64,000 nt of DNA from Bacillota bacterium (GTDB lineage: Bacteria; Bacillota; Sulfobacillia; JAUYEG01). Numbering within the stretch: the stretch's first letter is position 1; each line of letters opens with the position of its first letter. Below are positions 4,286 through 64,000 of the stretch, piece by piece. Location: the NCBI GenBank assembly GCA_040766985.1, contig JAXGPL010000002.1, positions 98,847 to 162,846 of the forward strand, written 5' to 3'. The position numbers were made by a program, and so were the translations under genes. The notes beneath the pieces are model-generated. The model was not told the DNA's origin. It did no database searches and saw only the letters and a list, made by a program, of their open reading frames with translations.

Positions 4286-4817
4286 GGACGGCAGCCGCCC
4301 GGATTACCTCACCATCGGCACCGTCACGTCGCCCCACGGCGTGCAGGGCGCAGTCAGGGTCTTCCCGCACACCGACATGCCGGACCGGTTCCGCGCCCTG
4401 GCAGAGGTGTGGCTCGGCTCGGGAGGACGCCCGCAGCGCCAGTGCCGCGTCGAAAGCGCAACGACCGGGCGGAAGTTGGTGGTTCTCAAACTGGCAGGAG
4501 TGAACACGCGCGAACAGGCTGAAGCCTTACGCGGAACCGACCTCCTGGTCCCCGTCGAGCAGGCCTGGCCGCTTCCGGAAGGCGCTTACTACCACTTCGA
4601 GCTGGAAGGGATGGCGGTGTTTGACTGCGCAGGACGTCTCCGCGGCACGTTGACCCGGGTGTACCCCGGTCCGGCCAATGATTTTTTCTGCGTATCCGAA
4701 GCCGGCTCCGGCCGTGAAACCCTGCTCGCCGCCGTGCGTTCCGTCGTCAAGGAAGTAGATCGAGAGCGCGGAAGGATGGTTGTCGAGTGGCCGGAGGAAT
4801 ACGGGCATGCGGATTGA
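4278..4817 (+). CDS. rimM: 16S rRNA processing protein RimM
   Basis: GTG start overlaps the ylqD end. GTVTSPHGVQGAVRV motif and a PRC-barrel C-terminal half. Confidence 0.9.
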   Translation: MSEDGSRPDYLTIGTVTSPHGVQGAVRVFPHTDMPDRFRALAEVWLGSGGRPQRQCRVESATTGRKLVVLKLAGVNTREQAEALRGTDLLVPVEQAWPLPEGAYYHFELEGMAVFDCAGRLRGTLTRVYPGPANDFFCVSEAGSGRETLLAAVRSVVKEVDRERGRMVVEWPEEYGHAD

Positions 4818-5628
4818 CATCGCGACGATCTTCCCGGCCATGTTCGCGGGCCCCCTCGGGACGAGCATCCTCGCGCGCGCGCAGGAAGCCGGGCTGCTCG
4901 ACATCCGGATTCACGACCTCCGTGACCACACCTCGGACCGGCACCGCACCGTTGACGACTATCCCTACGGAGGCGGAGCGGGAATGGTGATGCGGCCGGG
5001 CCCGTTCTTTAGCCTCTACGACAGCCTGGTCGGCGCGGACGGAGAGAGCGGGGAGGCGGGGAGCCGTGAAGCCGCGCCCGTCCGGCCTAGGCCAAGAGTC
5101 GTGCTGTTTTCACCTGCGGGGAAGGTCCTCAGCCAGCAAACCGTCCGGCGGTACGCCGGCGAGCCGTGGCTTCTCCTGATTTGTGGCCACTACGAAGGGA
5201 TCGACGACCGGGTTGCGGCCGGCCTCGGCGCCGAGGAAATCTCGCTCGGGGACTTCGTGCTGACCGGCGGAGAACTACCCGCGATGGTCCTGGTTGATGG
5301 AATCTCCCGGCTGTTGCCCGGAGTGCTTGGCACGGACGAATCGCTGGCCGAGGAGTCCTTCACCGCGGGGCTGCTGGAGTATCCCCAGTTCACCAGGCCT
5401 CCCGAGATCCGCGGCCTCACCGTGCCCGCTGTCCTGTTGTCCGGCGATCATCCGGCCGTGCACAGGTGGCGAAGGGAGCAGTCGTTGCTGCGTACAGCGC
5501 AGCGCAGGCCGGAACTCCTGGCGAGCGCCTGCCTGACCGAGGAAGAGCGCGCGATGCTTGAGCGAGCCGGCCTTGGCGCGGGCGCCGACGCGGGCCCGGA
5601 CGCGGGAGAGCCGGAGATAATTCGGTAG
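4807..5628 (+). CDS. trmD: tRNA (guanine37-N1)-methyltransferase TrmD
   Basis: ATG at 4807 gives MRIDIATIFPAMF. Also YPYGGGAGMVM, CGHYEGIDDRV, LTGGELPAMV. Carries a G/E/A/P/R-rich insertion of about 25 aa and a short acidic C-terminal tail. Confidence 0.93.
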   Translation: MRIDIATIFPAMFAGPLGTSILARAQEAGLLDIRIHDLRDHTSDRHRTVDDYPYGGGAGMVMRPGPFFSLYDSLVGADGESGEAGSREAAPVRPRPRVVLFSPAGKVLSQQTVRRYAGEPWLLLICGHYEGIDDRVAAGLGAEEISLGDFVLTGGELPAMVLVDGISRLLPGVLGTDESLAEESFTAGLLEYPQFTRPPEIRGLTVPAVLLSGDHPAVHRWRREQSLLRTAQRRPELLASACLTEEERAMLERAGLGAGADAGPDAGEPEIIR

Positions 5629-5699: not shown

Positions 5700-6043
5700 A
5701 TGGACCTGGTTCGCATGGTACAACAGCAACACCTGCGGCAAGATATCCCTGAGTTTCGGCCTGGGGACACCGTCCGCGTCCACGTTAAAGTTGTTGAAGG
5801 CGGACGTGAGCGTACTACAGGTATACGAGGGCACCGTGATCGACCGCAAGGTGGCAGTCTTGACGAGACCTTCACCGTCCGGCGGGTTTCGTTCGGCATC
5901 GGGGTTGAGCGGACGTTCCTCGTCCATTCACCCCGGCTGGCCAAGATCGAGGTCGCGCGGCGCGGCCGCGTGCGCAGGGCAAGCTATACTACCTGCGTGG
6001 TCTTAGGGGCAAGGCGGCGCGGATCCGGGAGCGCAGGGACTAG
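5700..6043 (+). pseudogene. rplS: 50S ribosomal protein L19, reading frame broken by three 1-nt indels (probably sequence error)
   Basis: [38 protein letters not shown] (frame 0), [11 protein letters not shown] (frame 1), [44 protein letters not shown] (frame 0), [20 protein letters not shown]-stop (frame 2). Shifts lie near 5815, 5850 (G run) and 5981 (A run). Net length is 344 nt, which is 345 minus 1. Confidence 0.9.
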
Positions 6044-6086
6044 TTCTTTGGGTCCCCGTGCGGTGGATCAAGGGGGCTCGAGTGAC

Positions 6087-6611
6087 ATGGCGGCGGCGAC
6101 GACACGCAGGGCAGTCCGGGAAATCGTCGAGACTATCCTCATCGCCGTCGTTCTTGCTTTCGTGGTCCGGGGTTTTGTCGTCGAGACCTTCGTCGTGCTC
6201 GGCCCCTCGATGGAGCCCACCCTCCACGATCTCGAGCGCCTCTTCGTCAACAAGGTCGTGTACCGCGTCCATCCCCCGCACCGGGGCGACATCATTGTCT
6301 TCGCGTACCCGCGTGATCCCGACAGGGACTTCATCAAGCGCGTAATCGCCCTGCCTGGTGAAACCATCGAGATCCGGGACGGGCGGGTGTACGTGGACGG
6401 TGAGTTCATCGCCGAGACCTACATCGCATTTCCGGATAACCACGGGGAATACGGGGCCGTCCAAGTCCCGCCGGAGCATGTCTTCGTCATGGGCGACAAC
6501 CGTCGCAACAGCGAGGACAGCAGGTACTTCGGCCCTGTCCCGTTTGAAAACATCAGGGGCAAGGCATTTCTGATCTATTGGCCGATCAACAGGTTCGGCC
6601 TTGCCCACTAG
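6087..6611 (+). CDS. lepB: Signal peptidase I
   Basis: ATG at 6087 ([27 protein letters not shown] segment). Catalytic [31 protein letters not shown]. Confidence 0.9.
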
Positions 6612-6617
6612 ACTGCC

Positions 6618-7514
6618 ATGTCACCGCAGCAGACCGCCTGGTATCCGGGCCTTATGGCACGGACCAGGCGCTTTCTTGACCGGTATCTAAAGCACCTCGA
6701 TGTGATCCTCGAAGTCACCGACGCCCGCGCCCCGCGCTCTTGCCGGTGGCACGGCCTGGACGAAGTTCTCCAGGGCAAACCACGGATTCTGATCCTCAAC
6801 AAGGCGGACCTCGCCGACACGGCAGTAACCGCTGAGTGGCAGGCATTTCATGAGGCTGCTTCGCTCCCTGCAGTGCCTGTCTCGGCCGCGGCGACAGGGG
6901 CCGCAGCCCGAGACCAAGCCCGCCGCCTGCGGGAGATGCTTCGCAGCATGGCCGGCACAAGCAGTCCGCTGAGGGCGGTTAAGGTGGCGGCGGTCGGCGT
7001 GCCCAACGCGGGCAAGTCGTCCGTTCTCAATCTGATCGGCGGCAGGCGCAGGGCGGCCACGGGGGCAAGGCCCGGACTGACTCGCGGCCAGCAGTGGATC
7101 GTGCTTTCCGGAGGCATCTGGCTCCTCGACCTTCCCGGGGTCCTGCCCCCCGCGCCGCGCGACCAGCGGGAGCTCTCAATCCTTGCTGCAGTAGGAACCC
7201 TGCCGGAAGGCGCCTATGACACACCCGACGTCGCGCTGTTGCTTCTGGCTGCCATGGCAGCCCACCCGGGGCCTGCTGAGTTAGCTAAGCGGCTCAAACT
7301 GGGGCCTGGCGAGACGGGCTTTGCAGGGGCCGGCGAACGTGAGCCTGTCGATTGGCTGAAGGCCTGGGCGCTGCGGCGCGGCGCCCTCGCCGCCGGCGGC
7401 GAGCCCGATTTCGCCCGTGCAGCGGCGATGCTGGTTGCGGAGTTCCGGAGGGGCGGGTTCGGCAGGGTCAGCCTTGAGCGTCCTGAACACGGGGAGGCTG
7501 ACGCACTTGGCTAG
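6618..7514 (+). CDS. rbgA: Ribosome biogenesis GTPase A (YlqF/RbgA)
   Basis: WYPGLMARTRR N-terminus, circularly permuted GTPase (NKADL before GVPNAGKSSVLN). Conserved position before rnhB. Confidence 0.9.
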   Translation: MSPQQTAWYPGLMARTRRFLDRYLKHLDVILEVTDARAPRSCRWHGLDEVLQGKPRILILNKADLADTAVTAEWQAFHEAASLPAVPVSAAATGAAARDQARRLREMLRSMAGTSSPLRAVKVAAVGVPNAGKSSVLNLIGGRRRAATGARPGLTRGQQWIVLSGGIWLLDLPGVLPPAPRDQRELSILAAVGTLPEGAYDTPDVALLLLAAMAAHPGPAELAKRLKLGPGETGFAGAGEREPVDWLKAWALRRGALAAGGEPDFARAAAMLVAEFRRGGFGRVSLERPEHGEADALG

Positions 7515-8256: not shown

Positions 8257-8535
8257 CTACCTACTGGTGCGGGTAGTGGTCCCACCGGTAGTACCGATAG
8301 TCGTGCCGGTCGTGCCTCCGGTGCGCCCCGCGAGCTGCTGCTCGGCGAGCTGGACCATCCGGCGGACCATGTGGCCGCCGACAGCGCCGCACTGACGGGA
8401 GGTCAGGTCACCCCAGTAACCGTCCGACGGAGTCGGAACGCCGATGTCACGGGCGACCTCGTACTTGAACTGATCCAGGGCCCGCTCGGCACCTTGGACG
8501 ACAGTCTGCCTGGTAGTGGTAGAGCCTTGAGCCAT
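8257..8535 (-). CDS. Alpha/beta-type small acid-soluble spore protein with a Gly/Thr-rich C-terminal tail
   Basis: ALDQFKYEVARDIGV...GDLTSRQCGAVGGHMVRRMVQLAEQQL matches the SASP DNA-binding signature. GGAGGTG lies 9 nt before the ATG (revcomp of 8533-8535). Only the last 92 codons of the 361-aa track ORF are credible. Confidence 0.9.
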   Translation of the reverse strand: MAQGSTTTRQTVVQGAERALDQFKYEVARDIGVPTPSDGYWGDLTSRQCGAVGGHMVRRMVQLAEQQLAGRTGGTTGTTIGTTGGTTTRTSR

Positions 8536-9271: not shown

Positions 9272-10895
9272 TTGAGCGTTACGGTACTCGGCGGCGTCAT
9301 TCTGGGCATCAGCGGCAGGATCGTGGCCGTCGAGGTCAACATGCGCGAGGGCTGCCCGGCATCGAGGTGATCAGGCTCGCCGGGCGTACAGGGAATCTGC
9401 GCACCGGGTCAGATCCGCGCTCGCCGCCGTGGGATACCGGCTGCCGCCCCGCAAGTTCGTGGTAAATCTGACGCCGGCCGACATGCCCAAGCGAGGGTCG
9501 TCGCTCGACCTTCCCATCGCGGTGGGCCTCCTGCGGGCTACCGGCAGCCAGGTCCGCACGACGACCATTGGTTCGCCGGGACCGGCTTTAAGGGCAGGTC
9601 GGGCTGGACGGCAGTCTGTTGCCTTCGCCTGGAGCGCTCGCGTTCGCGCTTGCCGCCGAGCAGCGGGGCCTCGGAGGATCGTCGTCGCGCCGGGCGATGC
9701 GCCCTTCGCCGCGCTCGGCGGGATCGCGGTCTTGACGCTGGAGTCGGTGACCCAGTTTGTCCGCTGCGGGCCGCGCCCGTGGGATCGACGGGCGGGCCGC
9801 CTGCCGGCCGGTACGGATGGGCTCGTGCTGGAGTCCGACGGCATGCGCGCCGGCCGTGCGGACCCTGCCAGCCGGGCGGCACACCACCTGGCCATCGCGG
9901 GCCTCGCGGGGCCCCGGCGCGCCGTTCACCTCGCCGCGGCGGGCGGGCACTCGTGTTGCTTCCTTGGCCCGCCCGGCGTCGGCAAGAGCATGTTGGCGCG
10001 TTCACTACACGCGCTGCTGCAGCAACCCGCGGAAAGCGAACTGGTGCAAATCGTCGCCATCGCGACTGCCGGCAACCCTCTGCCGAGATCAGGCGGGGAC
10101 CTGGAGCAACAGAGGCGTCGCTTCGCGAGCCGATGCTGTCCTGGTATCCCTGGGCGCCATGGTCGGCACCGGCAAGCCCTTTTGCGCAGGCGAGTGACGA
10201 GGGCCACGGGGGCGTGCTGTTGCTTGATGAGCTTGGCCGGTTTCGGGCGGAGGTGCTCTCGGCCATCTGTACCGCGATGGACAGGCGGTGGGTCGAGGTG
10301 CGCACCGAGCACGGCCCGGTTAGGCTGCCAGCCGGTTTCCAGTTGGCGGCGACATCAACCTCTGTCCCTGCGGCCGCCTGGGCGGGCGACTCGGAGGCTG
10401 TCTGCACTCCTGCGGCCAGGCGCTTTGGCGGCAGCTCTCGGGGTCGGTTCTGGACCAGGTCGACATGCACGTTGAGGTCTCAGGTCCGGAGCTTTGTGAA
10501 TTGGAGCAGCGGTTCGTCGGCCGTTCGGCAACCATGCCGGATCCGTTCCCGCCAGCAGCTTTACAGAAGAGCAACGGGCATTGGCCGAGCTTGCCGCGCA
10601 TCGCGCTTCGGTCGCCGAGGTGCGGGCCGTCCAGGCCGCAAGATACGGCGGCCAGGCCACCAACGCGACCGCGCCGGACGGGCTGGTGCTGGACCGGGCG
10701 ATGATGTCGCAGGATGCGTTGCGGTTGTTGGCTCAGGCACATCAGGAGTTGGCCCTGTCCGCGAGGGGTTACTTCTCCGTGGTCCGGGTGGGGCGGACCA
10801 TCGCAGATGTCGCAGGCCACGAAGCGATCGAGGCGGATGACCTCGCGGAGGCAGTAGCCTACCGCGCGAGAGGAGCGGGGGGAGGGGCCGGTTGA
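9272..10895 (+). pseudogene. comM: YifB/ComM family Mg-chelatase-like ATPase, at least 8 frameshifts
   Basis: Pieces are spread over all three + frames: VAVEVNMRE / GLPGIEVI / RESAHRVRSALAAVGYRLPPRKFVVNLTPADMPKRGSSLDLPIAVGLL / AAAGGHSCCFLGPPGVGKSML / GGVLLLDELGRFRAEVLSAI / NLCPCG..LDQVDMHVEV / LSARGYFSVVRVGRTIADVAGHEAIEADDLAEAVAYR. Confidence 0.85.
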
Positions 10896-10976
10896 CCCAA
10901 GTTGCCCATCTATGCTGCACACGGGCTCACGTTTAGGTATGCTAGGGATAGCTTTGCGCAAGGGGGATGCAGCCGG

Positions 10977-38468: not shown

Positions 38469-38975
38469 ATGCGGCGGGATCAGCTCGAGGCGCTTGCCGC
38501 GGCTCTGGCCCAGGAGATCTGCGCCGGCCGTGGGCTGATTTGGGTTGATACCACTTACCGCAAGAGCAACGGCGTGTGGCGCGTTCTCGTCCGGATCGAC
38601 CGGCCGGAGGGTGTCTCCATCGACGATTGCGCCGAGGTGTCAAAGGCCCTCGGCGCAAAGCTCGATGAGCTCGACCCGATCGAGCACCAGTACACGCTGG
38701 AGGTTTCCTCGGCGGGGCTCTCGGACCCGCTCAAGACGGAGCGCGATTTCGAGCGCTTTGTCGGCAGGATGATCGAGGTGGAGATGCCTCTATTCGGCGG
38801 GTCGGCCAGGGCGCGCGGCAAGTCCTCGCAGACGATCGTGGGGCGCCTTGAGGAATTCAGTCCCACGGCCCTTACGGTCAGAACCGGAGACGGGCAGATG
38901 AAGATCGAGCGGAGCCAGATCCGGCGGGCGCGGCCCGCCGTTGATTTCGAGGGTACGGGGGCAAAAGGGCGATGA
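38469..38975 (+). CDS. rimP: Ribosome maturation factor RimP
   Basis: ATG at 38469 with GGAGG 8 nt upstream. VLVRIDRPEGVSIDDCAEVSKAL..YTLEVSSAGLSDPLK. Confidence 0.9.
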   Translation: MRRDQLEALAAALAQEICAGRGLIWVDTTYRKSNGVWRVLVRIDRPEGVSIDDCAEVSKALGAKLDELDPIEHQYTLEVSSAGLSDPLKTERDFERFVGRMIEVEMPLFGGSARARGKSSQTIVGRLEEFSPTALTVRTGDGQMKIERSQIRRARPAVDFEGTGAKGR

Positions 38976-40020
38976 ATCGCGAGTTCATCACGGCTCTGGG
39001 CCAAATAGAGCGTGAGCGGGGCATTTCCAAAGAGGTGCTGATTCAGACCATTGAGGCTGCCCTGATATCCGCGTACCGTCGGAACACCGGGTCGTCGCAG
39101 AATATCACGGTCAACATCGACCGTGAGACCGGCGAGGTCAAGGTGTGGGAGCGCCTCGCCGTGGTCGACGAAGTGGTAGACACGCACGCGGAGATCGAGC
39201 GCGAACGCGCGGAGCAGCTTGTCGGCGGTCCAGTCGAGGACTACATCGAGGTCGAGGTCACGCCGGGCGACTTCGGGCGCATTGCGGCCCAGACCGCCAA
39301 GCAGGTTGTGGTCCAGCGCATCCGCGAGGCGGAGCGCGGCGTCATTTACGAGGAGTTCAGCAACCGCGAGGGCGACATCGTCACAGGGATCGTTCAGCGC
39401 CTCGAGGGCCGTACCGCTCTCGTCGACCTTGGCAAAGCCGAAGCGGTGCTCCGCCTCCCGAGCAGATGCACCATGAGCGCCTGCGGATGGGCGACCGGAT
39501 CAAGACCTATGTCGTGGAGGTCAAGCGCACGACCAAGGGGCCGCAGATCATGGTCTCGCGGACTCACCCCGGCCTGCTCAAAAGGCTGCTTGAGCTTGAG
39601 GTCCCCGAGATTCACGACGGGATCGTCGAGATCCGCGGCCTGGCGCGGGAGCCCGGGTCCAGGGCTAAAGTCGCGGTCTACTCGCGTGACCTTAATGTCG
39701 ACCCCGTCGGCGCCTGCGTCGGTCAAAAGGGAGCGCGCATCCAGGCGATCGTCAACGAGCTCAAGGGAGAAAAGATCGACATCGTCCGCTGGGATGCCGA
39801 TCCTGCGGTCTTCGTGGGCAACGCTTTGAGCCCGGCGAGGGTCCTTCGGGTCGACGTCGACGAGGAGAACCGGGTGGCCCGTGTCGTGGTCCCCGACTAC
39901 CAGTTGTCGCTGGCAATCGGCAAGGAAGGCCAGAACGCACGCCTGGCGGCCAAGCTGACCGGGTGGAAGGTTGACATCCGAAGCGAGAGCCAGGCCAGGG
40001 CCGAGGGGCCCGCGAGGTAG
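38972..40020 (+). pseudogene. nusA: Transcription termination/antitermination factor NusA, single frameshift near 39455
   Basis: N-terminal and S1 domains (MNREFITALGQIERERGISKEVL...GKAEAVL) in one frame. [43 protein letters not shown] plus the KH domains in the next. The shift is at a C run (CTCCGCC). Confidence 0.92.
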
Positions 40021-54914: not shown

Positions 54915-55931
54915 ATGACCGGGTATCGAGTGGCAATCGCGGGCGCGACCGGTGTCGTCGGCCGCACCATCATGGAAGTACTGGCAGAAAGGCGGTTTCC
55001 AGTCAGCGAGTTGAGGCTGCTGGCGACGGAGCGTTCGGCGGGGCAAAAGCTGCCCTTTGCGGGGCGGAAGATCGAGGTGAGGATCGCCGCGCCGGATGAC
55101 TTTGAAGGCGTCGACCTCGCCTTCTTCGCCGTGGGCACCGAGGCCAGCCGCGTGCTGGTCCCAATGGCAATCGCAAAAGGCGCGGTCGCCATCGACAAGA
55201 GCAACGCCTTCCGCATGGCCGCCGGCGTGCCGCTGGTTGTGCCCGAGGTCAACTCCCATGCGTTGGCCGGCCATAGCGGCATCATCGCCAGCCCCAACTG
55301 CACGACGATTCAGACGGTCATGGCCTTGAAACCGCTTCTCGACATCGCCGGCCTGGACTGGGTCCATGTCTGCTCATACCAGGCGGTTTCCGGCAGCGGG
55401 CGTGAGGGAATGGACGAACTGCAGGCCCAGCGGCAGGCCATGGCAGCCGGAGAGCCGCCACGGGCAAAGCTCTACCCGTGTCCGATCGCCGATAACGTCA
55501 TCCCGCACATCGATTCGTTCGGCCCCGACGGGTACACCGGCGAAGAGCGTAAGATGCTCACCGAGACCCGCAAGATCCTCGACCTGCCGGACCTCCCGGT
55601 GGCGGCTACGTGCGTGCGGGTTCCTGTGATGGTCGCCCACGCCACTGCCGTGATGGTCAAGACCAAGGAGCCGATCTCGGCACCGGACGCGCGGCGGGCG
55701 ATCGGGGCCTTTCCCGGGGTTGTGCTGATGGACGAACCGGGCACTTTCATCGACCCCCTCGACGCGGCAGGCCGTGACGAGGTCTTGGTGGGGCGGGTCC
55801 GCGAGGCCCCTGGGATGCCGAACACCCTGGAAATGGATCGTCGGCGATAATCTGCAAGGAGCAGCACTAAACGCGGTCCAGATTGCCCAACGCCTGGCGG
55901 AAATGGTCCCCAGGCGGTATCCGGGGAATAG
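54915..55931 (+). pseudogene. asd: Aspartate-semialdehyde dehydrogenase, two compensating indels near the 3' end (about 55835 and about 55900)
   Basis: VAIAGATGVVGRT, ASPNCTTI active-site Cys, SYQAVSGSG. The C-terminal WIVGDNLQGAALNAVQIAQRLAE lies in the +1 frame. Start and inferred TAG (55929-55931) are in the same frame (1017 nt). AGGAGG lies 7 nt before ATG 54915. Confidence 0.85.
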
Positions 55932-55932
55932 C

Positions 55933-57135
55933 GTGCGGATCATCGTTCAGTTCGGCGGGACTTCCGTGTCAACGTCCGAGTTGCGCTCGGACGTGGTGGC
56001 CCGGGTCCGGGAGGCTCTGGACTCTGGGTTGCACAGCGTCGTCGTGGTCTCGGCGAGGGCCGCGGCGACCCCTACGCCACCGACACGCTGCTCAGCCTGG
56101 TCCAGAGCGAAGCCACAGATGCTTCTGGGCGAGCTTGATATGCTGATGTCCTGCGGCGAAATCATCTCGGCCGTGATTACGGTAAACGCGCTTCGGGCGC
56201 GTGGGATCGACGCCGTGGCGATGACCGGTTGGCAGGCCGGAATCCATACCGACGACAACCACCTCGACGCCCAGATCGTCGGTGTCGAGCCCGATGCCGT
56301 TGTTCGCCAGTTGAGGCGGGTGGTCGTGGTGGCGGGTTTCCAGGGGATCACCGAGACAGGTGACATAACCACGCTCGGCCGAGCGACACCACCGCTGCAG
56401 CCAGCGGCCTCGGCGCGGAGGTCGTGGAAACGGCATGGACGTCGATGCTCAAGATCGCGGGATCCGCGGATCGTGCCCGAGGCCAGGACGATCGAAGTCG
56501 TCGGGCATTTCGAGGTGTGTCAGATGGCAAGTGAAGGGGCAAAGGTAGTCCACCCGCGCGCGGTGGAGATCGCGATGCGGTCGAACGTCCCGCGGGTCAA
56601 GTCCACGCAGGCGTCCTCGGCACGCCGATCGCGACCGGGACGAGGCGGATGAGTTGGCCGGTGATCACCGACGGGCGGCCGGTGACGGCCGTGACCCACG
56701 TCCCTGCTCTGAGCCAGGTGATTGTCGAAGGGCCGTCGGGGACCCTTGACCCGGATACCGAACTGCGGGTGTTCGAGGCCATGGCTTCGTCCGGGATCAG
56801 CGTCGATCTTGATCAACGTTTCGCCCGAGGGGTACGTGGTACCGTTCTCGAGCGCCAGGAAGCCGCGCCGTGCAGCCCTGGCGCACCCTCAACCTGTCGG
56901 TCGAAGCTCAAGAACCCCTGCGCCAAGGTTTCCGTGGTCAGGACTGGGATGCGGGGGTGCCTGGAGTGATGGCGAAGGTCGCCCGCGCGCTGGCCCTCGA
57001 GGGTGTGGCAATCCTTCAGTTCGCCGACTCACATGCGACCATATCCTGTCTGGTCGAGGCCAGCACATGGAGAAAGCGACGTTGCCTTCCGCACCGCGAG
57101 TTCGGCCTCGCCAAGACTGCTCCGGTGCCGGAAAG
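55933..57135 (+). pseudogene. dapG: Aspartokinase (DapG-type), heavily frameshifted, stop codon not identifiable
   Basis: VRIIVQ-FGGTSV, MSCGEIISAVITVNALRARGIDAVAMTGWQAGI, VVVAGFQGITETGDITTLGR, DPRIVPEARTIEVVG.FEVCQMASEGAKVVHPRAVEIAM, ACT-domain pieces (VTAVTHVPALSQVIVEG, GVPGVMAKVARALALEGVAILQFADSHATISCLV) in all three frames. The end is approximate. Confidence 0.8.
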
Positions 57136-57140
57136 GTGGA

Positions 57141-58002
57141 ATGGAGTTGGAGCTGGAACGGTTCTTACGGCAATGGTGGTCCTGTTCAACGGCAACCTTG
57201 AGGTTGACTACCGTCGAGCGCGGGGAACTTGCCCGATATTTGGTGGACAATGGTTCCCGAGCGGCTCGTCGTCGCGGGGACGACCGGTGAGTCCCCCGCG
57301 CTGGAGGAACGCGAGAAGCTCGTTGTTCGAAACGGTGCTCGTAGCCGGCAACGCGCTGGTGATCGGGTGCGAGGCTCGAATTCGACCGCCGCGAGCATCC
57401 GGCTGACCAAGCAGGCCGAAGCCATAGGGGTGCCCGCCGCGATGCCTGGTCCGTACGAACAAGCTGCCGCAGGAGGGCTGGCCCGCCACTTCGAAGCGGT
57501 GGCCAAAGCAACCGACCTGCCAGCTGATAATGCTGTACAACGTCCTCGGGCGCACCGGCGTTAACATGCAGGCCGCCACCACGCTGAGGCCTGCCAACGT
57601 GCCCAACATCGTGGCCGTCAAGGAGGCTTCCGCGCAACCTTGACCAGATCACGGAGACCGTCGCGAGTGCGCACCGGAGGGTTTCCAGGTGCTGAGCGGC
57701 ACACAGCCTGACACAAGGACTCTGGCCGCCGTCGGGGCACGGGGCATAGTAAGCGGTAGCGTCACACGCCGGCGGGAGATCGCGGCCAAGGCCATGTGCC
57801 GCGCCTACCGCGAGTGGCGCGGCAACGTGAGCAGGCCATGCACCAGAAGCTGCTGCCGCTGTTCAAGGTGTTGACCATCACAGCCAACCCGATTCCGGTC
57901 AAGGCGCTTCGACTTCGCGACATGGGCCGTGCCGGCTGCCGCTGTCGGGTCCTCACCCGGCGACATGCCGCCGCGGCGGTACGGAGCAACCGGGCTGGTT
58001 GA
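57141..58002 (+). pseudogene. dapA: 4-hydroxy-tetrahydrodipicolinate synthase, heavily frameshifted
   Basis: AAAGGTGG before ATG 57141. Pieces: GTVLTAMVVLFNGNLEVDY / ARYLVDNGSERLVVAGTTGESPALEEREKL / GSNSTAASIRLTKQAEAIGV / GLARHFEAVAKATDLP / NVPNIVAVKEAS / HQKLLPLFKVLTITANPIPVKA. Confidence 0.8.
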
Positions 58003-58213
58003 CCGCTTGCGCGCCGCCCTGTCCGCGGCGCTGTCGGCGCCGACCGCTCCCGCAGTCTGGGGCCACTCTTCGCCTCGACTTGAACCGGTAGACGTACGGT
58101 GGTCCCTGAGGCAATGCCTTCCAGGGGACCGGCAGCTCTGCGGGGATGGGGCCGGGTCCGGCAGCTGCAGTTGGAAGGCGGGTTGTGGGCACGTCACGCG
58201 CCCTCGCGTCAGG

Positions 58214-58242
58214 TTGCCCGGCCCGGGGACCGGGGCTATAAT
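58214..58242 (+). promoter_or_regulatory. Putative sigma-A promoter of rnj
   Basis: TTGCCC-17 nt-TATAAT, about 40 nt upstream of TTG 58286. Confidence 0.5.
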
Positions 58243-58285
58243 TGGTTGGACATTGCCTGCATTTTGACCCTGGAGTGATCTGCTC

Positions 58286-59947
58286 TTGAGCACCAATCGC
58301 CTATCGGTTTCATTTCTCGGCGGCCTCGGCGAGATCGGCAAGAACGTCATGGCCCTCACCTACGGCGGCGAAACCCTGATCATCGACTGCGGGTTGACCT
58401 TCCCGGACGATGAAATGCCCGGGGTGGACGTGGTCATCCCTGACGTCACCTACCTCGTTCAGAACAAGGACTCGATCCGCGGCATCCTCCTGACGCACGG
58501 TCACGAAGACCACACCGGAGCCCTGCCGTACGTGCTGCCGAGCCTCGACGGCGTCCCGGTGTACGCGTCAAAGCTGACGCTCGGCCTGGTAACGGGCAAG
58601 TTGCGTGAGTTGTGTCCCGGCCTCGATCCCGATCTGCGGCCGGTGACGGCGGGCGACAAAGTCACCGTGGGGGCGTTTACCGCCGAGTTCTTCCGCGTCA
58701 ACCACAGCATTCCCGACACGATGGGCATCGCCGTCCGCAGTCCGGTCGGGACCGTCCTGCACACCGGGGATTTCAAGTTCGACCAGACGCCCGTGGACGG
58801 CGAGGTGACCGATTTCCACAGGATTGCCGAATACGGTCGCGAAGGCGTGTTGGTCATGCTCTCCGACAGCACTCACGCCGACCGCCCCGGCTATACGCCG
58901 TCGGAAAAGGTCGTCGGGGTGCGCCTTGACCGGATCATGGCGGAGGCCCCGGGCCGTGTGCTCGTGACTACCTTTGCCTCCAACGTTCACCGCATCCAGC
59001 AGGTTTTCACCGCCGCCGAACGACGCGGGCGCAGGGTGGGGATCGTCGGGAGGTCGATGCTCAACACCGTCGACGTTGCGGGGCGCCTGGGATATCTCAG
59101 GATCCCGTCGGGACTCGTGGTCAACATCGACGAGGCTCTGCGCCTTCGAGACAAGGAATGTGTCCTCCTGGCATCGGGCAGCCAGGGAGAGCCGATGTCC
59201 GCGCTCACCCGGATCGCACGCCACGAGCACCCCCGGGTTGAGGTCAGGGAGCACGACACAGTCGTGATGGCCGCGACGCCGGTGCCGGGCAACGAGAAGA
59301 CCGTCGCCAGGACCGTGGACGACCTCTATCGCGAGGGCGCTCGCGTGATCCAGCCGCCGTATGAGCAGGTCCACGTCAGCGGCCACGCCAGTGAAGAAGA
59401 ACTGAAGATGATGATCAATCTGGTCAAGCCGCAGTACTTCGTGCCGATCCACGGCGAGTACCGGAACCTTGTCCGCCACGCCGAAATGGCACACGAGCTC
59501 GGGGTGCCCAGGGACAACACGTTCATTGTCGAAAACGGCTCCGTCCTGGAGTTTTCGTCGTATCACGGACGGCTTGCGGGGCGTGTCGCCTCGGGTTCGG
59601 TGTTCGTCGACGGCCGCGGAGTGGGGGACATCGGCTCGGCGGTGATCCGCGACCGCACCCAGCTTTCGCAGGACGGCGTGATGGTCGTCGCCGTCACGAT
59701 CGACTCCGCTAAGGGCAAGGTCCTTGCCGGCCCCGATGTCGTCACGCGGGGGTTTGTTTACGTCCGCGAATCAGAGGAACTGCTGAACGAGATCCGCGAG
59801 GCCCTGGCCGACGCACTGCGCGAGCTCGAGGGCGGTCCGATGGACTGGCCGCTCGTCAAGTCAGTGCTGCGTGACAGGGCGCAGGAGATCATCGCCGAAC
59901 TGACGGGCCGTAGGCCGATGATCCTGCCCATGATCATGGAATGCTAG
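58286..59947 (+). CDS. rnj: Ribonuclease J
   Basis: [19 protein letters not shown], metallo-beta-lactamase [12 protein letters not shown], beta-CASP and C-terminal domain. 553 aa, intact. Confidence 0.95.
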
Positions 59948-59974
59948 CACCCCCCCGCCAACAATACTAGAGTC

Positions 59975-60003
59975 GGGCCCGGCGCGGCGTGCCGCCCGGG
60001 CCC
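59975..60003 (+). terminator. GC-rich hairpin after rnj
   Basis: GGGCCCGG(c)GCGG...CCGC CCGGGCCC, about 12-13 bp. No clear U tract. Confidence 0.4.
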
Positions 60004-60044
60004 TTAACTTGACTCGAGTCTTGACTTGGTGGAGGGGGATTATC

Positions 60045-60917
60045 ATGTCCTACCGCCAGAGGAGGAGCGCTGCGCGGAGGCGGCGTCCCACGGTTCTTCC
60101 TGGCGCCGCCGATCCCGTCGTCAACCCCTGGTTCACCAATCCCGGTGTCCCGGCAGTGCCGGCGGGAGACCGGCCTGAGCACGACCGTCAGGAGCCGGGC
60201 GTGGAAACCGGAGGGGGCGGGACCGGCCAGACTAAGTCGCTTGAGCGCTTCGGTACGCTCCGGCTGCCCACGCCGGGCAAGGGCGAGAACATCCACTGCC
60301 TGACGATCATTGGCCAGGTCGAGGGGCACATCGTCCTGCCGCCGCAGAACAAGACCACCAAGTACGAGCACACGATACCGCAGCTTGTGGCAATCGAACT
60401 CAACCCGGCGATCGAAGGCGTCCTGATCGTCCTCAACACCGTCGGTGGGGATGTCGAAGCAGGCCTCGCGCTGGCCGAGATGATCGCCAGCCTGTCCAAG
60501 CCCAAAGTCTCGCTCATCGTCGGCGGCGGACATAGCATCGGCGTGCCGATCGCGGTTGCCGCGGATAAATCGTTCATCGCCCACACGGCGACCATGACCA
60601 TCCATCCAATCCGGCTCTCCGGCCTGGTGGTAGGCGTGCCGCAGACGTATGAGTACCTTGACAAGATGCAGGACCGGGTAGTCAAGTTCATCGTAGCCAA
60701 GTCGCGGGTTTCCGAGGAAGCTTTCCGGGAGATGATGTTCCGGACCGGCGAACTAGCCAGGGACATCGGCACTGTGCTTGTTGGGTCCGACGCGGTGCGC
60801 TCCGGGCTGATCGACGAGGTCGGCGGCCTCGGGGAAGCCATCGCCACGCTTCAGCACATGATCAGCTCACGGAAGGGGGACCCCGAGGATGCTGCTGTGG
60901 ACACCGCTACCCATTGA
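60045..60917 (+). CDS. tepA: ClpP-fold serine protease-like protein TepA
   Basis: ATG at 60045 after [50 protein letters not shown]. Conserved rnj-tepA-ylzJ order. Confidence 0.85.
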
Positions 60918-61119
60918 AAGCGTGATGGAGGGGTATGGGGAGAGCAAGCCCGCCCTATCGCAAGTCGAACTGCCCGACGGCGGCGGCTTGCTGCTCATCG
61001 ACAGCTCTTCCGGTCGCGACCGGATCTGGCGCGTCCTGAGTACAAACCCCTTCGACTACCTGAGGCCCGAACTCGCTCCCGGCCAAGCTTGGGCGGCCCG
61101 CGACGGCAAGAGGGCCTGA
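60889..61119 (+). CDS. ylzJ: YlzJ-like small protein
   Basis: 76 aa. [12 protein letters not shown]...[19 protein letters not shown] pattern. Overlaps the tepA end, as is typical of this pair. Confidence 0.6.
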
Positions 61120-62510
61120 ATCGCCAGCGCTGCCTTCAGCCGTTCCTTCATCAGGGCGCAGCCCAGCGGGTAGGGGCAAAGAATGTCGCCGCCCCACTTG
61201 AGCGCGGCGTAATGGCAGCCCCCGCCGCAGTGCAACTGCGCCCAGCAGTCCCTGCAGGCGGGCTTGTTGCCCACGTGGGCTGAGGTCAGGCTGCGCACCC
61301 GGTATACGCCAGCGCGGGCGGAGCCGCCGATGCCGCGCCGCCGTCTGCAGCTGCACGGCCAGGCGTCAGCCGGCCCAACTCGTATCCCTCGACGCCGTCA
61401 ATTGATGGCACGGGTATACGGCCCCGGAGGGTTCACACATGCGTACCCGCCGCCGGCAGCGCACCCGGTGAACCGTTTTGGCGCGCAGGCGGGGCTCTCC
61501 GTGTTCAGCTCAAGTGGAAAAAGCGCACCCGTCCGTCCAGTACCAGCTCTGCGATTCGTTCGTAAGACTCGGCGATGGGACCGAGATCCTCCGCCCTGAT
61601 CGCGTGCCGGGTCGAGGGCATCGCAACGGGTTCCATCGAAACCTGTCCAAAGCCGCTCGCCGCCAGAAATTCCACGTCACGCCAAAAATCGAGGTTGTCC
61701 TGCCGTGACGTCCCGCGGATCCAGAGCGGCCCCGAGTCGATGGGTAGGTCGGGGTGCAGGGACGTAGCGCGCGAACCGGGCACGGCGCCGTCGCGCTTTG
61801 CCCTCTGTTCGAGTGCCCGCGCCAGTAGCTTTGCGCCGGCGAACGCCCGCTCGAAGCTCGGCCCTCCCGTACGGGTCCGGCGGTGGCGGTCGTGACTTCC
61901 GGGCGCCCGTCGATGGAAACGATCAGCGTCGACATGTTCCCGGCGCAGAACGCCGCCCGCTCTTCGTCCAGGCCGACTCCGTTCGTAGTCAGCGTGAAGC
62001 GGATCTCCCTGCCCGTCGCCGCCGCGCGCTCACGGCCGTAGCGGACCGCCTCGGTTACCGCCGGCCACGCCAGGAGCGGCTCACCCCCAGAAGTCGACGC
62101 TGAGCGACCTGCCGGCCGGGGAGTTGGCCATCAGGTAGTCGATGGCCGCGCAGGCCGCTTGCGGCCTCATGATCGATGCGCCAGGGGAGCCGTAGCAGCC
62201 GCGGCCGGCAAAACAGTAGTCGCACGCCAGGTCGCATGCATGGGCGACGTTCAGGCATAGCGATGAAGTCCCTGCACGGGCAGCGTGCCGCTGGGGTACT
62301 GGGGCCGGCGGAACAGCCCCGCAGCCGCTAGTTCGTTCAAGCCTTGCGCGGCTCGGACGCGCCGGGCGCGTCGGGCGCCGCCAGGAACTGTTTCCAGGAA
62401 TGGTAGGCGCCCTCGCCAAGGCTCACGAGGGCGCCGCTCGAACCGTCGTAAAGCAAGTTGCGATCAAGGGTCCGGAAAACCCGGACCAGGCCGCAGTAGG
62501 GGGCCGCCAC
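61056..62510 (-). pseudogene. scfB: SCIFF radical SAM/SPASM maturase (ScfB, ranthipeptide thioether-forming enzyme), at least 8 frameshifts
   Basis: The minus strand, straight after the scfA stop, reads VAAPYCGLVRVFRTLDRNLLYDGSSGALVSL / LNELAAAGLF / LCLNVAHACDLACDYCFAGRG (CX3CX2C) ..AIDYLMANS..SVDFWG / GEPLL..IRFTLTTNG / LIVSIDGRPEV / NLDFWRDVEFLAASGFGQVSMEPV..FFH / GCAAGGGY / CRDCWAQLHCGGGCHYAA..CALMKERL (SPASM). Confidence 0.85.
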
Positions 62511-62687
62511 CTAAGCCGGTCGATCGCCGGTCGCCGTGCAAGGCTGGTTGCCTACCGTGCACGACGTCTTGCAGGCCGATTGGCAGGAAGCGGAACATGC
62601 CGAGCAGTCCGCCGCTGGAGGAACAACTGCGGCGATCGGGCGGAGGACGATCTCGAACGCAGGGCTATTGGCCTGCTTATCACTCAC
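62511..62687 (-). CDS. scfA: Six-cysteine SCIFF ranthipeptide precursor (ScfA)
   Basis: The C-terminal CSACSASCQSACKTSCTVGNQPC contains the hallmark SCQSACKTSCTVGNQ string and six Cys. GAGGTG lies 6 nt before GTG at 62687. The track start (GTG 62696) lies inside that Shine-Dalgarno. Confidence 0.85.
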   Translation of the reverse strand: MSDKQANSPAFEIVLRPIAAVVPPAADCSACSASCQSACKTSCTVGNQPCTATGDRPA

Positions 62688-62720
62688 GGATCTCACCTCT
62701 TCATGGGATGCACAGTCATC

Positions 62721-62749
62721 ACTATACTCAATGCCGCCGGGCCAGGCAA
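62721..62749 (-). promoter_or_regulatory. Putative sigma-A promoter of scfA-scfB
   Basis: The minus strand reads TTGCCT-17 nt-TATAGT, about 25 nt upstream of the scfA Shine-Dalgarno. Confidence 0.5.
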
Positions 62750-62783
62750 CCGCGCAAGCGTCCGCCCCGCGCCCCGCGCCATA

Positions 62784-64000
62784 TCAGCCTGCCGCTGCCG
62801 CAAGCATACCCGGCAGGATGGCGTATACGGCCGCAGCCTTGACCATTCCGGGGATATCCACCTGGTCCTCCACCGTATGCGCGAACCTCTCCCGGCCCGG
62901 GCCGAAACCGATGGTCGGGATGCCCAGGCGACCCATCGTCATGACCCCGTCGGTTGAGAACTCCCACTTGCCGATGACCGGTTCCGATCCCGTTATCAGC
63001 CTGACAGCGGAGGAAAGGGCGGTCACGAAGCAGTGCTCGGCAGGCACCTCCCAGGCGGGATACTCCTTCGGAGCGCTCTTGCGGAGGCCAGTGTAACTCG
63101 GCTGGCTGTACTCCACGAGCCGCACGTCCGGGGCCTTGGCGCCCGCGCCGCCGGCAGTTGCGATCAACAGCCTGGTGAGGTCCGAAGCCGCGTCGCCCGG
63201 AAGGGTCCGCCAGTCGACCACGGCTGAGCAGCGTTCGGGCACGACGTTGGGCGAGCCCGAGGCGGCGTGGATCCGGGTCACCGCCACGCTGGCAGGCCCG
63301 AGAAAGGCGTGTCTTGGGAGGTCGGCCCCAAGGGCTTCGATGGCCTTTGCCCACGCCGCCATGTCGTAGATGGCGTTGTGGCCCCGCCACGGAGACGAGC
63401 CGTGGCAGGCCGTGCCGAGGGTTTCGATGCCGAACTCGCAGCGCCCGCGGTGCCCGCGCGCAATCCCGAGGTCGGTGCACTCGCCGAGGACGACACAATC
63501 TGGCGAAACCTCGCCCGAGCCGATGGCGTCGCCGATCGCCCAGCCTTCGGCTACCTCCTCCTCGACGACACCGACGAGGTCCAGTTGCCAGGCCCCGTCC
63601 TGCGCCAATCCGAGTTCGGACGCGATGCGTAGCCCCGCGATCATCGCAGCCAGAGCTCCCTTGTTGTCGCAAGCGCCTCTGCCGAAGACCCGGCCGTCCT
63701 CAACCTTGCCCTTGAACGGGTCGAACGACCAGACCGCGGCGTCTCCGGGGCCGACCGTGTCCATATGGGCATCGTAAACGACCCGGAACGGCCCGCCGCC
63801 GAGGGTGGCGATCACGCTGCCGCAGCGGTCGCGCCGCGCCGGAATGCCCAGGGACCGGCACTCGGAAATGACGCGGTCGGCAAGCTTGCCCTCGTTGCAG
63901 CTGACGCTGGGAATGGCGATCAAATCCCGCAACAGGCCGACCACATACGACTCGTATTCGCGGGCCTTGTCAAGGCATGCCCGGGCTGCGCCGTCAACGC
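62784..64000 (-). CDS. M20 family metallohydrolase, YgeY-like (5' end outside the window)
   Basis: LLRDLIAIPSVS, DAHMDTVGPGD, FGRGACDNKG, RGHRGRCEF, CHGSSPWRGHNAIYDMA, SQPSYTGL, KWEFSTDGVMTMGRLGIPTIGFGPG. The frame stays open upstream of GTG 63944 to the window edge. Confidence 0.8.
   Translation of the reverse strand, partial: VDGAARACLDKAREYESYVVGLLRDLIAIPSVSCNEGKLADRVISECRSLGIPARRDRCGSVIATLGGGPFRVVYDAHMDTVGPGDAAVWSFDPFKGKVEDGRVFGRGACDNKGALAAMIAGLRIASELGLAQDGAWQLDLVGVVEEEVAEGWAIGDAIGSGEVSPDCVVLGECTDLGIARGHRGRCEFGIETLGTACHGSSPWRGHNAIYDMAAWAKAIEALGADLPRHAFLGPASVAVTRIHAASGSPNVVPERCSAVVDWRTLPGDAASDLTRLLIATAGGAGAKAPDVRLVEYSQPSYTGLRKSAPKEYPAWEVPAEHCFVTALSSAVRLITGSEPVIGKWEFSTDGVMTMGRLGIPTIGFGPGRERFAHTVEDQVDIPGMVKAAAVYAILPGMLAAAAG

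Follow-up and report, generated by a model that had tools for sequence, protein, structure and literature searches.

SCIFF (six Cys in forty-five) is among the most widespread systems for peptides that are synthesized by ribosomes and modified post-translationally (RiPPs) in Clostridia, with a poorly defined product and role. Ranthipeptides are defined by a non-alpha thioether cross-link on the peptide. The closest described relatives of the gene studied here are canonical ScfA precursors (CteA of Clostridium thermocellum, Tte1186a of Caldanaerobacter subterraneus) and the maturase CteB/ScfB (TIGR03974; structures 5WGG and 5WHY). CteB has an N-terminal recognition element in which the bound leader forms a beta-strand, lying between strand 3 and helix 3; the open iron of an auxiliary cluster is reached by CteA residue Cys21 (PMC8326336). 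The mapped cross-link of CteA joins Cys32, the fourth Cys, to Thr37 or Thr34 (PMC8326336). In this study, we analyzed a 64,000-nucleotide stretch of contig JAXGPL010000002.1 (Bacillota assembly GCA_040766985.1; hereafter the window), which carries scfA, a small minus-strand gene that a preliminary description of this DNA had presented as encoding a SCIFF-type ranthipeptide precursor.

Like its canonical counterparts, scfA lies directly upstream of a gene for an ScfB-type radical SAM/SPASM enzyme, is present in one copy per locus and belongs to a spore-forming member of the Bacillota. With a confidence of roughly 80%, we consider it a genuine gene with transcription of its own, encoding a SCIFF-family ranthipeptide precursor, and the lineage-specific orthologue of an uncultured high-GC spore-forming Bacillota group. 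As for its role, the preliminary description had called the function of SCIFF still unknown. This does not wholly hold, as the passages of PMC8326336 and PMC8102284 that cite Chen et al. 2020 report that SCIFF is linked with quorum sensing and sporulation in solventogenic clostridia.

A canonical core between a divergent leader and tail

The gene and the parts of its product are as follows:

62511..62687, minus strand: scfA, SCIFF-type precursor gene; 58 residues plus TAG stop, GTG start at 62687; Pfam SCIFF
62607..62687, minus strand: leader region, residues 1-27, MSDKQANSPAFEIVLRPIAAVVPPAAD; unaligned by the SCIFF profiles, conserved within the clade described below
62538..62606, minus strand: core, residues 28-50, CSACSASCQSACKTSCTVGNQPC; six Cys in the pattern C-x2-C-x3-C-x3-C-x3-C-x6-C
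62514..62537, minus strand: tail at the C-terminus, residues 51-58, TATGDRPA; follows the clade pattern [TPAV]-A-...

The 58-residue product, MSDKQANSPAFEIVLRPIAAVVPPAADCSACSASCQSACKTSCTVGNQPCTATGDRPA, matched the Pfam family PF13165 SCIFF with 45 bits (gathering threshold 27, E 9.9e-12), in agreement with the family proposed at the outset. The NCBIfam profile TIGR03973, which had been suggested as a check, also matched, but with 46 bits the peptide stayed below the curated equivalog cut-off of 50. Both profiles aligned residues 27-51 only, to profile positions 19-43, and the TIGR03973 cut-off was missed because the alignment is confined to the core and the leader adds no score. Members of the related clade scored 44-54 bits, on either side of the cut-off, compared with 87.5 bits for a canonical control. 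The peptide thus possesses the features by which SCIFF is defined structurally, namely the core, the Cys spacing, a score above the Pfam threshold and an adjacent ScfB-type enzyme, but departs from the family in its length (58 residues instead of about 45) and in lacking a leader of the MKH[IV]KT type, alignable along the entire profile. A PDB sequence search with the peptide gave no match.

As a canonical reference, we used 53 unique SCIFF peptides from 80 metagenomic loci, found among the matches listed by a peptide-alignment scan; that scan picked up the universal core motif, and the listed loci were canonical SCIFF loci and not members of the subfamily. The spacing of the six Cys around SCQSACKTSCTVGNQ is identical in the scfA product, these 53 background peptides and 13 clade peptides, and the canonical block QSACKTSCTV[GA]NQxC is present unchanged in scfA. 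Using a +7 numbering offset, Cys39, Thr41 and Thr44 of scfA would correspond to Cys32, Thr34 and Thr37 of CteA (PMC8326336). Ahead of the third Cys, canonical ScfA reads GG-CGECQTS and scfA AD-CSACSAS. The first Cys pair had been described as replaced; in fact, only the intervening residues differ (canonical CGECQ[TA]SC, with GE in 42/51, versus CSACSASC), whereas the C-x2-C-x3-C spacing is intact.

The leader had likewise been singled out as divergent, and it is. Canonical leaders are Lys-rich, 20 residues long and of the form MKH[IV]KT[LV]...GG, whereas that of scfA has 27 residues, is Pro/Ala-rich and uncharged or acidic, and cannot be aligned to the model. Over the last 20 leader residues, the net charge is -1 in scfA and -4 to +1 in the clade as compared to a canonical mean of +3.8, and the Pro+Ala fraction is 0.20-0.45 in the clade as compared to 0.05. 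One feature is shared: by direct count, 17 residues separate the hydrophobic stretch F11-L15 (FEIVL) from the first Cys that follows it, just as they do Ile4 from Cys21 in canonical leaders of the MKHIKT type.

For the tail, about nine residues had been counted; there are eight, starting with T-A. Although longer than the canonical median of four and lacking the leading Glu found in 37/51 canonical peptides, the tail falls within the canonical range of 2-21 residues. It is therefore unusual by composition, not by length. Seven of the 13 clade tails have P-A at their end.

scfA carries conserved expression signals and is under purifying selection

Upstream of the coding region, two signals were located:

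62694..62699, minus strand: ribosome-binding site GAGGTG, 6 nt 5' of the GTG start; read from the sequence
62721..62749, minus strand: predicted sigma-70-type promoter TTGCCT-17-TATAGT; from a consensus scan

The program-made open reading frame (ORF) spans 62511..62696 and encodes 61 residues. We regard the GTG at 62687 as the likelier start, because the upstream GTG of the longer ORF sits inside the ribosome-binding site, and because the resulting N-terminus agrees with homologues starting MSDQK (P0003) or MSEAK. Both signals had been noted before and both are present, the promoter being conserved in relatives. It was the single promoter-like site found in 60800..63000, where 0.1 were expected from shuffled sequence. 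The pattern TTGCC[TCG]-17/18-TATA[GT]T is kept 5' of scfA in the window and in the related loci L001, L008, L171 and L172, it is identical in L007, a contig of a metagenome-assembled genome (MAG; GCA_964430585.1) that is 99.36% identical to window positions 58212..64000, and its counterpart in L004 reads TTGTTG-17-TATATT. The loci retaining this promoter are only 50-65% identical in protein. A GGAG- or GAGG-type motif occupies the equivalent position before scfA in L001, L004 and L172. A riboswitch or small-RNA reading of the upstream region was dropped, since an Rfam scan of the window returned no RNA families.

The scfA protein of L007 is identical to that of the window, with one synonymous nucleotide difference between the genes. 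Between the window and L001, the 23 core codons differ by 12 synonymous and no non-synonymous changes, and the 21 pairwise core comparisons among seven clade loci gave 196 synonymous versus 72 non-synonymous codon differences. In none of the 21 comparisons did any of the 15 invariant core residues change. The core is under purifying selection, and we therefore take scfA to be a translated gene.

Short frames of this kind call for caution, as spurious ORFs are plentiful in high-GC DNA, and gene finders left scfA uncalled in the MAG (L007, 4312-4488) as well as in four related loci (L169, 4808-4993; L170, about 4930-5100; L171, about 4790-4990; L172, 4730-4924). That the frame is a chance opening, with no gene behind it, is nevertheless hardly credible. 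The Pfam SCIFF match (E 1e-11), the synonymous excess together with the unchanged invariant residues, and the conservation of promoter, ribosome-binding site and position 5' of scfB all contradict it, and the conservation data already refute it.

Related peptides form a clade in one uncultured lineage

Searching 5.8 billion proteins, we recovered eight related peptides (P0001-P0008) whose similarity includes the leader. In full-length alignment, their identity to the scfA product is 52-66%, and local BLAST alignments give 59-75% identity over 72-98% of the query. Four further clade peptides came from uncalled ORFs in L008, L170, L171 and L172. The 13 peptides, every one from an uncultured member of the Bacillota, have in common the leader x-F-E-I-I-x-P-V-A-A...G-A-D-C, a first block C-[SA]-x-C-x-[AS]-S-C and a tail of 7-15 residues, such that scfA is not the isolated oddity it had first seemed. 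Their consensus is x(5-15)-[FYV]-[ERK]-[IVL]-[IV]-[ILV]-x-P-[VIL]-[AP]-[AP]-x-x-P-x-G-A-[DN]-C-[SA]-x-C-x-[AS]-S-CQSACKTSCTVGNQ[PA]C-[TPAV]-A-... As JGI already labels two of these peptides SCIFF, the family assignment as such is not new. What appears to be undescribed is that these peptides form a coherent clade whose leader has diverged along with the recognition domain of its maturase, a domain that is truncated and neutral in charge. Scanning a genome collection with the ScfB alignment yielded one true relative (L008), the other 79 loci being unrelated SPASM enzymes, mostly of Actinomycetota; the back-translated patterns used were too strict, and the collection contained neither the window genome nor the near-identical MAG.

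The host was placed using a conserved neighbour of the locus:

58286-59947, plus strand: RNase J

The closest relatives of this RNase J are about 14 uncultured sequences at 70-81% identity, followed by a drop to at most 60% for all named Bacillota genera, and several of them reside on the same contigs as clade scfAB loci. Because RNase J shows the same identity gap, the peptide clade tracks one deep-branching lineage. The source organism is thus best seen as a member of an uncultured, deep-branching Bacillota lineage and scfA as the vertically inherited SCIFF orthologue of that lineage. Its earlier portrayal as a high-GC sporeformer fits the window, which has a GC content of 65.7% and contains genes for an alpha/beta SASP, DpsA, a SpoIID/LytB-domain protein and YlzJ. 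Given that both scfA and its maturase fall below the NCBIfam naming cut-offs, and that scfA was missed in five related loci, SCIFF is under-annotated in high-GC Bacillota.

The clade maturases are divergent members of the ScfB family

The maturase gene directly follows scfA:

61056..62510, minus strand: scfB, gene for the radical SAM/SPASM maturase; starts with a GTG that directly follows the scfA stop codon (TAG-GTG)

Conservation of a radical SAM neighbour had been named as a check on scfA, and such a gene adjoins scfA in every relative examined. It is intact in L007, L001, L004, L008 and L169-L172; the frame is broken in the window copy, as discussed below. TIGR03974 was the best family for the clade enzymes, with 326 (L007), 306 (L001) and 347 bits (L004), all below the equivalog cut-off of 425, and the score against the 'not_ScfB' exception model was far under that model's own cut-off. 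Other SPASM enzymes that form thioethers on Cys-rich peptides are more distant: against 326 bits for ScfB, the clade enzyme scored 187 bits with PapB/freyrasin (NF047865), 145 with QhpD (TIGR03906) and 104 with CcpM (TIGR04068), whose substrates are without the SCIFF core. In the protein collection, the clade is represented by about 17 clusters with identities of 47-65% and scores of 333-858 bits, separated by a gap from named canonical ScfB at 317 bits or less. Clade enzymes are about 35-44% identical to canonical ScfB and, by tblastn, 31-38% identical to the background loci. By these sequence comparisons, the clade maturases form a discrete ScfB clade.

CteB (5WGG/5WHY) was the only PDB sequence match of clade ScfB (E 7e-70). 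The phmmer alignment covers residues 79-226 and 263-470, but not the N-terminal 78 residues. An AlphaFold model of the clade member P0050, which is not the window copy (predicted local distance difference test 91.6, predicted template-modelling (TM) score 0.91), found 5WGG_A as its best fold match, superposing over the full length (E 7e-34, TM 0.78/0.85, root-mean-square deviation 3.2 A, 490 columns, 28% identity). C92, C96 and C99 of the radical SAM CxxxCxxC motif and the eight cysteines of the SPASM region (C344, C352, C370, C423, C426, C432, C436 and C455) are found without exception in the clade and canonical sequences, and the frame-corrected window ScfB keeps all radical SAM and SPASM cysteines. 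The N-terminal domain of clade ScfB retains the three-stranded sheet and the F...D-x-x-S-G-A motif of CteB, but about 20 residues of its helical part are gone; in the P0050 model, three strands and two helices remain, compared with three helices in the CteB-type element.

Leader and recognition domain have apparently diverged together

The truncated domain also differs in charge. Canonical ScfB N-terminal domains have a net charge of -10.3 (-13 to 0), whereas those of the clade average 0.0 (-3 to +2). Over the rest of ScfB, the net charge per residue is -0.025 in canonical and -0.003 in clade enzymes. As judged from these sequences, the leader and the ScfB recognition domain have diverged together. 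In its size, the charge change is specific to the N-terminal domain, which argues for compensating evolution of two binding partners.

By analogy with CteA/CteB, the scfA product and a clade ScfB should work as a similar pair. The FEIVL stretch of the leader would take the form of a beta-strand and dock onto ScfB at its N-terminal recognition domain. The enzyme, a radical SAM protein with two auxiliary SPASM clusters, would then abstract a hydrogen from a Thr side chain in C-K-T-S-C-T, and the Thr carbon would be joined to a Cys sulfur as a thioether, from Cys39 to Thr41 or Thr44. In the course of divergence, the leader lost its Lys-rich character and became Pro/Ala-rich, and the recognition domain shed about 20 residues of its helical part along with its net negative charge, while the core and the catalytic cysteines stayed fixed. 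We tentatively extend this scenario to a further proposal, which on present evidence is rather doubtful, that the uncultured lineage rewired SCIFF leader recognition, moving from a Lys-rich leader and an acidic three-helix domain to an uncharged Pro/Ala-rich leader and a neutral truncated domain around a frozen core. If this were true, the rewired recognition would amount to a natural swap experiment on the contacts needed by the maturase. Canonical SCIFF members are too uniform for sequence comparison to reveal what their maturases recognize. The clade offers a naturally diverged leader/recognition-domain pair with an unchanged core, which can be used for mapping such determinants.

Several observations weigh against this picture. 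The amino-acid and codon bias of high-GC genomes may account for part of the charge shift. A C-terminal Cys (R-x-E-C-A-L) that 96% of canonical ScfB enzymes possess is replaced by Ala in 4/4 aligned clade enzymes (residue 464 of L007 ScfB, window position about 61120), and clade ScfB carries an insertion of about 36 residues after residue 226 relative to CteB. Moreover, the peptide (46 versus 50 bits) and the clade maturases (306-347 versus 425) both score under the NCBIfam equivalog cut-offs, so that identical chemistry is not guaranteed. Taken together with the remodelled recognition domain, the longer tail of other composition and the clade-specific gene neighbourhood, these differences could also be explained if the locus encoded a SCIFF-like but functionally distinct RiPP system, which uses the same core scaffold for cross-links or a role other than those of clostridial SCIFF. 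We consider such a system quite improbable, as the 15 residues of SCQSACKTSCTVGNQ, home of the only cross-link residues mapped so far, are invariant, none of the cluster-binding cysteines has been lost, the modelled fold matches that of CteB from end to end, and ScfB is the best family by a wide margin while the 'not_ScfB' model stays far under its own cut-off.

The scfB gene of the window is broken, probably by assembly errors

Three-frame translation and frameshift-aware alignment revealed eight frameshifts and two 3-nt deletions in the window copy of scfB. The frameshifts were mapped with a custom dynamic-programming alignment to the ScfB proteins of L001 and L004 (61% identity); a frame plot of GC content at third codon positions was too noisy for this purpose, and plain tblastn of intact ScfB smeared across frames. 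The preliminary description had assumed that scfB would need repair before it could be co-expressed with scfA. However, the gene is intact in the near-identical MAG contig L007, where it encodes 488 residues. Base by base, the window differs from it by indels at about 61288, 61335, 61399, 61428, 61511, 61606, 61893, 62088, 62263 and 62345, mostly homopolymer contractions or small complex clusters. Relative to L007, the flanking 4.35 kb show only 12 isolated substitutions, of which three in the gene for a ClpP-like protein and one in scfA are synonymous.

Similar damage was detected elsewhere in the window. Across 55750-58200 (plus strand), the 3' end of asd, lysC and dapA contain many frameshifts, in a patch that starts mid-gene in asd. 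Compared to intact L172 references, the frame has to be corrected 11 times over 870 nt in dapA and at least five times over 720 nt in the 3' part of lysC; after correction, conserved motifs such as VAGTTGESPAL are read without error. A single frameshift at about 39465 places the NusA_N and KH domains of nusA (38973-40020, plus strand) in different frames. The comM/yifB-type Mg-chelatase gene (9400-10900, plus strand) is split over at least three frames, with Pfam Mg_chelatase 5-63, Mg_chelatase 105-177 and the C-terminal domain on three different ORFs. The other window genes tested for frame breaks were intact. GC content, considered as a cause of the indel patches, showed no clear difference. 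At window position 58212, on the edge of the asd-lysC-dapA patch, the MAG contig L007 comes to its end. Exact-protein look-ups of PNPase and DpsA found neither on record and so did not lead to the MAG counterpart of this patch.

Because similar patches affect the essential genes asd, lysC, dapA and nusA, because scfB is intact in L007, and because 0.3% divergence would give a far lower ratio of indels to substitutions than the one seen, we think it likely, on circumstantial grounds, that the breaks in scfB are assembly or polishing errors. A different view is that scfB is a genuine strain-specific pseudogene, which would leave scfA as an orphan precursor, either a relic or a peptide kept for a maturase-independent role. 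Besides the eight frameshifts and two 3-nt deletions, this view can draw on clustered substitutions, including a change of RGTYT to RGTSR at a conserved motif, and on the location of the indels: over 58212-64000, the 5.8 kb shared with the MAG, all ten events lie within scfB, and gene-specific decay would look alike. Moreover, scfA and its promoter are still perfect. True loss of scfB beside such a perfectly conserved precursor, a bolder version of the rewiring proposal above, would imply a maturase-independent role of the peptide. We nonetheless regard a pseudogene as unlikely. Ten indel events against about 0.3% substitutions in the flanks far exceed neutral decay between such close strains, patches of the same type occur in asd, lysC, dapA, nusA and comM, which a spore-former is unlikely to have lost all together, and the conserved motifs of the broken genes are legible after frame correction. 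The orphan precursor beside a dead maturase, the most eye-catching feature of the locus, is thus probably an artefact. More generally, an apparent pseudogene beside a notable gene calls for a check of how good the assembly is as a whole before any biological reading.

Gene neighbourhood and further features of the window

The remaining annotated neighbours of scfA and scfB are the following:

62784..64000, minus strand: M20 hydrolase, YgeY family; runs off the window end, directly upstream of scfA
60889..61119, plus strand: ylzJ; Pfam YlzJ 65 bits, same position in L001, L007, L171 and L172
60045..60917, plus strand: ClpP-related (TepA-like) protease gene; conserved neighbour

All sampled clade loci follow the order [ADI/DDAH]-[M20 hydrolase]-scfA-scfB-ylzJ-ClpP-like-RNase J, and the order in the window agrees. 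The 3' ends of ylzJ (plus strand) and scfB (minus strand) overlap convergently by about 64 nt (61056-61119), as they do in L001, L007, L171 and L172. The ClpP-like protein is identical in the MAG, its three nucleotide differences all being synonymous. Canonical SCIFF loci have only the scfA-scfB pair in common with clade loci. A shared neighbourhood was therefore uninformative as an orthology test against the canonical Clostridia loci, the M20/YlzJ/ClpP-like/RNase J context being clade-specific.

The M20 hydrolase scored 358.7 bits against NF009555, the equivalog model of the 'YgeY family selenium metabolism-linked hydrolase' (cut-off 321), and occurs in the equivalent position in L001, L007, L008, L171 and L172. 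A function as leader peptidase was considered and set aside: the protein belongs to the metabolic YgeY family with a score above the cut-off, it is absent from the clade loci L004, L169 and L170, and the scfA promoter lies in between. In most clade loci, a gene of the ADI/DDAH family accompanies the hydrolase 5' of scfA; in L007 it is found at 5883-6851, outside the window. Among the sporulation-associated genes, the SASP gene (8257-8535, minus strand; Pfam SASP 100 bits) has an unusual Gly/Thr-rich C-terminal extension, GRTGGTTGTTIGTTGGTTTRTSR.

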